In this document: in pieces, positions 9,091 to 42,355 of the stretch
How positions within the stretch are numbered: the stretch's first letter is position 1
How the letters are laid out: every line of letters starts with the position of its first letter
NCBI RefSeq assembly: GCF_030013205.1
Contig: NZ_CP122648.1
DNA length: 64,000 nt
Source: Escherichia coli
GTDB lineage: Bacteria > Pseudomonadota > Gammaproteobacteria > Enterobacterales > Enterobacteriaceae
Reading direction: 5' to 3' (one strand)
Notes under the pieces: model-generated
Seen by the model: only the letters and a program-made list of their open reading frames with translations
What the model was told of the DNA's origin: nothing
Database searches by the model: none
Made by a program: the position numbers and the translations under genes

Positions 9091-10194
9091 ATGGACCGCA
9101 TTATTCAATCACCAGGTAAATACATCCAGGGCGCTGATGTGATTAATCGTCTGGGCGAATACCTGAAGCCGCTGGCAGAACGCTGGTTAGTGGTGGGTGA
9201 CAAATTTGTTTTAGGTTTTGCTCAATCCACTGTCGAGAAAAGCTTTAAAGATGCTGGACTGGTAGTAGAAATTGCGCCGTTTGGCGGTGAATGTTCGCAA
9301 AATGAGATCGACCGTCTGCGTGGCATTGCGGAGACTGCGCAGTGTGGCGCAATTCTCGGTATCGGTGGCGGAAAAACCCTCGATACTGCCAAAGCGCTGG
9401 CACATTTCATGGGTGTTCCGGTAGCGATCGCACCGACTATCGCCTCTACCGACGCACCGTGCAGCGCCTTGTCTGTTATCTACACCGATGATGGTGAATT
9501 TGACCGCTATCTGATGTTGCCAAATAACCCGAATATGGTCATTGTCGACACCAAAATCGTCGCTGGCGCACCTGCACGTCTGTTAGCGGCGGGTATCGGC
9601 GATGCGCTGGCAACCTGGTTTGAAGCGCGTGCCTGCTCTCGTAGCGGCGCGACCACCATGGCGGGCGGCAAGTGCACCCAGGCGGCGCTGGCACTGGCTG
9701 AACTGTGCTACAACACCCTGCTGGAAGAAGGCGAAAAAGCGATGCTTGCTGCCGAACAGCATGTAGTGACTCCGGCGCTGGAACGCGTGATTGAAGCGAA
9801 CACCTATTTGAGCGGTGTTGGTTTTGAAAGCGGCGGACTGGCGGCGGCTCACGCGGTGCATAACGGCCTGACCGCTATCCCGGACGCGCATCACTATTAT
9901 CACGGTGAAAAAGTGGCATTCGGTACGCTGACGCAGCTGGTTCTGGAAAATGCGCCGGTTGAGGAAATCGAAACCGTAGCTGCACTTAGCCATGCGGTAG
10001 GTTTGCCAATAACTCTCGCTCAACTGGATATTAAAGAAGATGTCCCGGCGAAAATGCGAATTGTGGCAGAAGCGGCATGTGCAGAAGGTGAAACCATTCA
10101 CAACATGCCTGGCGGCGCGACGCCAGATCAGGTTTACGCCGCACTGCTGGTAGCTGATCAGTATGGACAACGTTTCCTGCAAGAGTGGGAATAA
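9091..10194 (+). CDS. gldA: glycerol dehydrogenase
   Basis: ORF 9052..10194 trimmed to Met at [14 protein letters not shown] (367 aa); iron-containing ADH family motifs. Confidence 0.9.
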
Positions 10195-10390
10195 CCTACT
10201 CCAAACTCCCGGCTTGTCCGGGAGTTTGAGAGTGCAGGCAAAGTGGCTCACTCGTCACTGCGGGCATGTTTTTCCCCCTCGCCCTTTCAGGGAGAGGGTC
10301 GGGGTGAGGGTAAATATTCGCCCCGGAGCTGGCCTGTTCCCCTCACCCTAACCCTCTCCCCAAAGGGGAGAGGGGACTGTTCGAGCACTT
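10195..10390. repeat. cluster of GC-rich palindromic intergenic repeat units
   Basis: perfect inverted repeat CAAACTCCCGG-CTTGT-CCGGGAGTTTG directly after gldA stop, followed by two imperfect palindromes built on GGGAGAGGG / CCCTCACCC motifs. Confidence 0.5.
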
Positions 10391-10524
10391 TTTATACGTT
10401 ATCACCCGTCTGAAACTCCCACGTTGTTCAGGAATTTTTTATCCGCTTCTGGACATTTTCTCCACAGAACAATCGTTAGCCCGGAAGGTCGAATCTGTGA
10501 CTCTTATTTTCACGGACGAAACAG

Positions 10525-11142
10525 ATGAAAGCTTCACTGGCGTTATTCAGTCTTCTGACGGTATTTACCAGTTACTCCTTAAAATCTCCCGCCGTTCCAC
10601 CAACCGTGGTACAAATCCAGGCCAACACCAACCTTGCCATCGCAGACGGTGCCAGACAGCAAATCGGCAGCACGCTATTTTACGATCCGGCGTATGTGCA
10701 GCTTACCTATCCTGGCGGTGATGTCCCGCAGGAACGCGGCGTATGTTCCGATGTGGTGATCCGCGCCTTGCGCAGCCAGAAGGTCGATTTGCAGAAACTG
10801 GTTCACGAAGATATGGCGAAGAATTTTGCTGAGTACCCGCAAAAATGGCAGTTAAAGCGCCCGGACAGCAACATCGATCACCGTCGGGTGCCTAATCTGG
10901 AAACCTGGTTTAGCCGCCATGATAAAACACGCCCCACCAGCAAGAACCCCGGTGATTATCAAGCGGGCGATATTGTCTCCTGGCGATTAGATAACGGGCT
11001 GGCGCATATTGGGGTGGTGTCAGATGGCTGTGCCCGCGACGGTACGCCGCTGGTGATACATAACATTGGCGCAGGCGCGCAGGAAGAAGACGTGCTGTTT
11101 AGCTGGCGGATGGTGGGGCACTATCGGTATTTTGTTAAATAA
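10525..11142 (+). CDS. yijF: DUF1287-family periplasmic protein
   Basis: 205-aa ORF with N-terminal signal peptide; synteny between gldA and yijE. Confidence 0.8.
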   Translation: MKASLALFSLLTVFTSYSLKSPAVPPTVVQIQANTNLAIADGARQQIGSTLFYDPAYVQLTYPGGDVPQERGVCSDVVIRALRSQKVDLQKLVHEDMAKNFAEYPQKWQLKRPDSNIDHRRVPNLETWFSRHDKTRPTSKNPGDYQAGDIVSWRLDNGLAHIGVVSDGCARDGTPLVIHNIGAGAQEEDVLFSWRMVGHYRYFVK

Positions 11143-42198: not shown

Positions 42199-42300
42199 GA
42201 TGCCGGATGCGGCGCGAACGCCTTATCCGGCCTACAAAAGTTTGCAAATTCAATAAATTGCAGAATTCACGTAGGCCTGATAAGCGAAGCGCATCAGGCA
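42199..42300. repeat. REP/BIME element (two inverted REP units)
   Basis: GATGCCGGATGCGGCGCGAACGCCTTATCCGGCCTAC and inverted GTAGGCCTGATAAGCGAAGCGCATCAGGCA. Confidence 0.7.
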
Positions 42301-42355
42301 TTTTTGCTTCTGTCATCGGTTTCAGGCTAAAGGAATCTGCCTTTTTCCGAAATCA

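Follow-up and report, generated by a model that had tools for sequence, protein, structure and literature searches.

We analysed the intergenic spacer between gldA and yijF in a 64,000-nucleotide stretch of an Escherichia coli genome (contig NZ_CP122648.1), referred to here as the window. The genes in this part of the window are arranged in the order fsaB, gldA, a 330-bp spacer and yijF, followed by yijE on the opposite strand (Table 1). The boundaries of gldA rest on the open reading frame list and on the RefSeq annotation of a 100%-identical locus in strain CFSAN018748 (NZ_CP028192.1), in which gldA occupies positions 397-1500 and position 1501 corresponds to window position 10195. No annotated feature was present in the gldA-yijF spacer in the RefSeq annotation of thousands of genomes. 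Relatives of the downstream protein, YijF, were collected using a pattern-based scan of 100,044 species genomes that returned 70 loci. The Escherichia relatives among them shared 90-95% identity, and the next closest matches, from Acidobacteria, Acinetobacter, Chryseobacterium and Epilithonimonas, shared 45-61%. No other Enterobacteriaceae with YijF were among these 70 loci, an absence that is no proof in a scan of this kind. From this distribution yijF looks like a gene horizontally acquired in the Escherichia lineage.

Table 1. Coordinates of genes and repeat features at the gldA-yijF locus of the window.
Feature	Position	Strand	Description
gldA (glycerol / L-1,2-propanediol dehydrogenase) CDS	9091..10194	+	from the open reading frame list; TAA stop ends at 10194; upstream of the repeat
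Hairpin 1, CAAACTCCCGG-CTTGT-CCGGGAGTTTG	10202..10228	+	11-bp stem, 5-nt loop
Derived cassette, ~180-nt dispersed palindromic repeat (BoxC pair plus left and right arms)	about 10230..10408	.	from allele alignments
Long imperfect palindrome of the inverted B+A pair	10275..10375	.	39-nt arms, 23-nt centre
BoxC/PIT/TMECO motif type B, CCCTCGCCC-TTTCA-GGGAGAGGG-TCG-GGGTGAGGG	10276..10310	+	exact consensus match; one stem mismatch; second loop TCG
BoxC/PIT/TMECO motif type A, CCCTCTCCC-CTTTG-GGGAGAGGG-TTA-GGGTGAGGG	10340..10374	-	exact consensus match; no mismatch; second loop TTA
Hairpin 2 relic	10413..10437	+	direct-repeat copy of hairpin 1 (10203-10227), 76% identical, then T6
yijF (DUF1287 protein) CDS	10525..11142	+	downstream neighbour gene

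The original prediction for this spacer, made from the letters of the window, was a perfect 11-bp-stem hairpin right after the gldA stop followed by two longer imperfect palindromes with reiterated motifs, and all three structures were found where it had placed them. The arms of the hairpin (10202-10212 and 10218-10228; 11 nt, 100% complementary) begin 7 nt past the stop codon. The long palindrome is G/C-rich and nested, with arms (10275-10313 and 10337-10375) that are 82% complementary. Two local palindromes lie within it, CCCTCGCCC-TTTCA-GGGAGAGGG at 10276-10298 with one mismatch and CCCTCTCCCC-AAA-GGGGAGAGGG at 10352-10374, which is perfect. The word GGGAGAGGG occurred three times in the element and nowhere else in the 64-kb window, with 0.2 occurrences expected.

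These features were compared with the intergenic repeats described as BoxC, PIT or TMECO (Bergler et al. 1992; Hoyne et al. 2000; Hoyne & Maher 2002; Holder et al. 2015, PMC4666352). BoxC, Maher's PIT (potential intrastrand triplex) elements and TMECO ("triplex motif") are a single family according to Holder et al. 2015 (PMC4666352), with 3610 copies in 262 proteobacterial genomes and none in Salmonella. The published consensus, CCCTCNCCC-N3-6-GGGNGAGGG-N3-GGGNGAGGG, consists of a C-rich block and two G-rich blocks; motifs with TTA as the second loop are type A, those with CCG or TCG are type B, and palindromic sites combine one A and one B motif on opposite strands, as at five K-12 sites (Holder et al. 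2015, PMC4666352). The full three-block consensus had two exact matches in the window as compared to 0.00 expected from 100 shuffles. The second loop of the plus-strand motif is TCG, as in the type-B K-12 motifs no. 12 and no. 20, and that of the minus-strand motif is TTA, so that the pair follows the A+B rule. The type-B motif is comparable to K-12 TMECO no. 10 and no. 12 (Table 1 of PMC4666352). The type-A motif is the perfect form with a CTTTG loop, whereas most type-A copies in K-12 (13 of 15) have one mismatch (PMC4666352).

The type-A 36-mer of the window has an identical counterpart in the supplement of PMC4666352, listed for E. coli 042 as TMECO no. 514 (4612757-4612792); we verified that these coordinates fall between gldA and yijF in that genome. 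Strain 042 thus has this BoxC allele too, except that a single G has become A in block three of its type-B motif (GGGGTGAGGG to GGAGTGAGGG). Only one motif of the 042 pair was catalogued because this change breaks the type-B consensus. As two inverted exact consensus matches were found where none was expected, and the type-A motif is identical to a catalogued copy, the palindrome cluster is, by its sequence, a known E. coli BoxC/PIT/TMECO intergenic repeat made up of an inverted type-B and type-A pair. Every family feature that could be tested here was present, namely the consensus, the A+B pairing, an intergenic and multi-copy distribution, and homology to the box C beside envM (fabI). Nothing essential distinguished the window element from the family, the one difference in location being that K-12 is without a copy at gldA-yijF. 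The family is already on record, and so, since 2015, is its presence at this locus in strain 042.

Folding predictions were carried out for both strands. The 111-nt core folded into one long hairpin at -70.6 kcal/mol on the plus strand and -72.3 kcal/mol on the minus strand, with an RNA z score of about -6 on both. As single-stranded DNA the long palindrome gave a z score of about -4, and two local hairpins were the alternative fold. Hairpin 1 as RNA reached -22.2 kcal/mol (z = -6.1 against shuffles). Oligonucleotides of K-12 type A and type B form a stable intrastrand purine-motif triplex of the G-rich strand in vitro, as measured by CD and NMR, and the triplex was not detected in vivo (PMC4666352).

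To define the extent of the repeat unit we used alignments of the alleles at this locus and of copies elsewhere. The cassette junctions fall after GGGAGTTTGA on the left and before TCTGAAACTCCC on the right. The range first proposed, 10195-10390, therefore does contain the predicted features but does not delimit the repeat unit, which is longer. A blastn search with the 182-nt element was positive in 5424 of 5426 complete E. coli genomes, and the median genome had 16 matching places; the motif is thus dispersed, and it is neither unique in the genome nor unconserved across strains. Copies were read at ygfF-gcvP, alx-sstT, entC-fepB, recA-recX, eutG-eutH, hrpB-mrcB, lldD-trmL and fabI-ycjD. The ygfF-gcvP copy was the closest among the paralogues found, with 85-90% identity over 154-191 nt including the arms; it aligned to window 10225-10415 at 85%, and the alx-sstT copy aligned to 10270-10426, also at 85%. 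The right arm (GAGCAC...TTGTCATC) recurred at alx-sstT, entC-fepB and recA-recX, and the left arm from TTTGAGA was common only to the ygfF-gcvP copy. The motifs of the alx-sstT and entC-fepB copies, read in non-K-12 strains, were identical to K-12 nos. 12/13 and 7/8. The entC-fepB pair lies in a divergent promoter/leader region about 70 nt upstream of fepB, showing that copies are not all in 3' regions. In the O145 strain RM9873-C1 the 242-bp spacer separating recA from recX holds a copy whose left half is degenerate.

The name 'box C' originates from the copy at fabI (envM). The K-12 fabI-ycjD spacer holds TTTTCCCCTCACCCTAACCCTCTCCCCAGAGGGGCGAGGGGACCG, which is 91% identical to window 10334-10380 and coincides with TMECO no. 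9 (1351204-1351239). The repeat also has a long form of ~150 nt at the palindromic sites of K-12. It may correspond to the 152-bp 'RSA' repeat, for which the 1997 K-12 genome paper reportedly gave 6 copies; no paper defining 'RSA' was found by full-text literature search. The K-12 copies at ygfF-gcvP, hrpB-mrcB, lldD-trmL and fabI-ycjD coincide with TMECO sites listed in Table 1 of PMC4666352. Across the paralogues the three 9-nt blocks were extremely conserved, and this conservation is not explained by a purely neutral element.

The gldA-yijF spacer was found in two forms among complete E. coli genomes. The 330-bp BoxC spacer was present in 630 of 5426 genomes (~12%), including strain 042, and a 274-bp REP/BIME spacer as in K-12 was present in 4592; BoxC is absent from the locus in about 85%. 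The two alleles have hairpin 1 in common on their left side and, on their right, the whole stretch from TCTGAAACTCCC onward up to yijF, and the 116 nt directly 5' of yijF are identical. Between the shared flanks K-12 carries ~123 nt, of which 107 nt match the window at 42201-42307 with 89% identity. That part of the window (42199-42307) is a genuine two-REP BIME in reverse orientation relative to the K-12 gldA-yijF BIME, and the original prediction had been right to use 42199..42300 as its REP reference. A third allele was considered and rejected, as the apparent exceptions were the BoxC allele scored differently, a diverged BIME allele or a chromosomal rearrangement. Strain 7_12_15B (NZ_CP074849.1) has dppA instead of gldA upstream of yijF owing to a chromosomal rearrangement with its breakpoint in the repeat; its match to the K-12 spacer begins at position 61, within the first REP of the BIME. 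Escherichia sp. MOD1-EC7003 has two tandem BIME-like units upstream of yijF and no gldA 3' end in the 402 nt examined, so that its spacer is different in structure or rearranged.

The polarity of the two alleles was read from the four other Escherichia lineages for which the full spacer was recovered. Each of these, namely E. albertii, E. whittamii, Escherichia sp. E1V33 and the divergent 'E. coli' SCPM-O-B-8794, has a BIME in the spacer and no TMECO motif. Because the BIME form is found in four of four lineages, this outgroup comparison shows the BIME to be the ancestral sequence and the BoxC unit to be derived, having replaced the BIME within a minority E. coli lineage. The BoxC allele shows almost no variation, with 574 records at least 99% identical to the window element, and in three strains it is linked to one GldA protein allele, WP_000373992.1. 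This uniformity and linkage are consistent with a single origin of the BoxC allele.

Two direct copies of a single terminator-like hairpin flank the variable cassette. Hairpin 1 is native spacer sequence, present in both alleles and outside the BoxC element; K-12, E. albertii and Escherichia sp. E1V33 all have it in identical form. The stem of hairpin 1 in E. whittamii and SCPM-O-B-8794 reads CTCCCGC/GCGGGAG as compared to CTCCCGG/CCGGGAG, a compensatory swap of a G-C pair to C-G. Hairpin 2 in other Escherichia species has an intact G/C stem and then T6, the form of an intrinsic terminator, and in both alleles of E. coli it has decayed from GGGAG to AGGAA. In SCPM-O-B-8794 both hairpin copies carry the same variant stem (CCCGCG...GCGGG), and this shared variant suggests duplication or homogenisation of the two. 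The ancestral BIME may have inserted together with a duplication of the gldA terminator.

REP/BIME (PU) elements occupy the same niche as the BoxC element, being palindromic intergenic repeats just 3' of a stop codon, and a BIME is the ancestral sequence at this very spacer, but the sequences of the two are unrelated. No similarity to REP (GCCGGATGCGGCG... / GCCTGATGCGC...) was found in the BoxC allele, which shares only its flanks with the K-12 allele. This bears out the proposal that the cluster belongs to an intergenic repeat family other than REP. REPs have a transposase family, RAYT, and documented mRNA-stabilising and protein-binding roles, whereas we know of no transposase family and no documented mRNA-stabilising or protein-binding role for BoxC. 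ERIC/IRU (RU-1), YPAL (RU-2) and other MITE-like repeats resemble the window element in being intergenic imperfect palindromes of 100-170 nt that fold into a long RNA hairpin and sometimes contain spurious ORFs (Delihas 2007, PMC2759123). ERIC-type elements differ from the window element in that their terminal inverted repeats are defined and their target is TA. Two candidates from that study were rejected as unrelated in sequence, RU-2 (168 bp), which is the Yersinia YPAL, and RU-3 (103 bp), which is a BIME (PMC2759123).

How the BoxC unit reached the spacer was considered from its junctions. Short stretches of identity with the recipient spacer lie at both ends of the element (TTTGAGA at the left end, TCTGA at the right), and GGGAGTTTGAGAC is present in E. 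whittamii and SCPM-O-B-8794. No target-site duplication was visible at the cassette junctions, and the event was a replacement and not a simple insertion. As the ends coincide with recipient identities and no target-site duplication is seen, we infer for this single locus that the BoxC copy would derive from a paralogue through illegitimate, microhomology-guided recombination or template switching, and that classical transposition is the less likely route. The ygfF-gcvP copy was tried as the donor and is unsupported, being only 85-90% identical. A MITE-like mobile element would fit the length of about 180 nt, the overall palindromic form and the many intergenic copies, and the copy number does differ greatly between strains, from 1-2 in CFT073, UTI89 and IHE3034 to 12-13 in 042, 23 in K-12 and 29 in 55989. 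The terminal heptamers of the window copy (TTTGAGA / TCTGAAA) are also near-complementary. However, this 7-nt pair was the only trace of terminal inverted repeats, as the left arms of the paralogues are not conserved or alignable and give no common terminal pair, and with a replacement lacking any target-site duplication the defining marks of a MITE are missing. Matches on plasmids were very rare (37 of 77,112 places), we know of no partner transposase, and in the 2015 study the motifs were not associated with mobile elements (PMC4666352). We consider it unlikely that the cluster is a mobile element of this type, and microhomology-guided arrival remains the reading we prefer.

A second locus is of interest for the alternation of the two repeat families. 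At bglA-gcvP a REP-bearing spacer is likewise the alternative to a segment carrying ygfF and BoxC. Strains JJ1886 and O157:H7 F1273 are without ygfF and the adjoining BoxC unit and have a 165-nt spacer with a single REP. The right junction there falls exactly at the end of the BoxC unit, beside the gcvP terminator, and the K-12 form of bglA-ygfF-gcvP is absent from about 2400 of 5426 genomes. The BoxC/BIME alternation at gldA-yijF and bglA-gcvP could hint at a shared landing site. That BoxC units and BIMEs compete for shared 'landing pads' beside terminator hairpins, and are exchanged there by a directed mechanism, is a doubtful extension of this, since REPs are very common downstream of genes and coincidence is the simpler explanation.

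We next considered what the element does in the cell. The reading we favour, with a probability of roughly 0.85, sees the cluster as a dispersed, non-coding repeat whose effects are limited to structural by-products. In the alternative reading the whole cluster would be a functional module at the 3' end of the ptsA-fsaB-gldA RNA, where it would either terminate transcription or, in the manner of a REP, stabilise gldA mRNA by blocking 3' exonucleases. This alternative draws on the position of the cluster on the sense strand 7 nt past the gldA stop and on the very stable RNA folds (-111.9 kcal/mol for 226 nt, z = -6.9; core z = -6.1). Most of the paralogues read also lie just 3' of a stop codon, and the displaced allele belongs to the BIMEs, whose stabilising effect on mRNA is established. 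Against these points, no T-run directly follows the long BoxC hairpin on either strand and a scan called no promoter-like or terminator-like site on it, the sole terminator call being a weak 5-bp stem at 10251-10264. The element is missing from the locus in most E. coli genomes and in the other Escherichia species, and Hoyne & Maher 2002, as cited in PMC4666352, found no promoter or terminator activity for BoxC/PIT/TMECO. The structure that is conserved with a compensatory change is hairpin 1 and not the BoxC hairpin. A 3'-end function of the BoxC element is thus improbable. Hairpin 1 has no canonical U-tract and was not called by the terminator scan, so that a G/C stem with an immediate T-run was found neither there nor at the BoxC hairpin. 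Being native to the spacer, conserved in both alleles and across species, and with its pairing kept by a compensatory exchange, hairpin 1 is a likelier 3'-end element than BoxC, and it is probably a 3'-end structure of the gldA transcript. The earlier suggestion of an mRNA-stabilising or terminating structure therefore stays plausible for hairpin 1 only and is unsupported for the BoxC part, which lacks a T-run, is absent from about 85% of strains and is without published terminator activity.

A coding or regulatory RNA role was also weighed. An uninterrupted 56-codon ORF with a GTG start (10243-10413) spans the element, and weak matches to Rfam hairpin-RNA models were obtained. At permissive thresholds these were only eukaryotic miRNA precursors on both strands, the best scoring 31.6 and 31.1 bits as compared to gathering thresholds of 83 and 77.5, and such sub-threshold matches reflect only a long hairpin. 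The 56-aa ORF had no match in Pfam, and a 62-aa ORF had one chance-level match below the curated cut-off. RefSeq annotates no small protein or RNA here in thousands of genomes, the scan found no promoter-like site and the indels between paralogues would break the frame. That the element encodes a small protein or a small regulatory RNA is therefore extremely improbable.

The dispersed, non-coding repeat that we favour probably has no dedicated cellular function here, given the published findings and the fact that about 85% of strains lack it at this site. No later functional study of BoxC/PIT/TMECO was found in the literature collection searched. The side effects expected of such an element are structural. 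A gldA transcript that reads through would carry a very stable long hairpin, and a single G-rich strand could adopt the purine-motif triplex that, in vitro, can stall polymerases. BoxC sites would also be hotspots of small intergenic rearrangements. Intergenic TMECO sites vary between strains more than control sites do (PMC4666352), and the gldA-yijF polymorphism is one more instance of this published variability of BoxC sites.

For annotation, these results mean that the appropriate label for the spacer is a BoxC/PIT/TMECO inverted pair, and that the 56-codon ORF and the miRNA-like matches should be disregarded. Spacer length, 330 bp or 274 bp, is a simple marker of lineage. If the landing-pad reading were true, a hairpin-targeted copy-paste or template switch would be the first clue to how BoxC spreads. 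The locus is a clean natural case of one intergenic repeat family replacing another with the polarity known, and it offers a test case for the movement of BoxC and for its effects on the expression of neighbouring genes.
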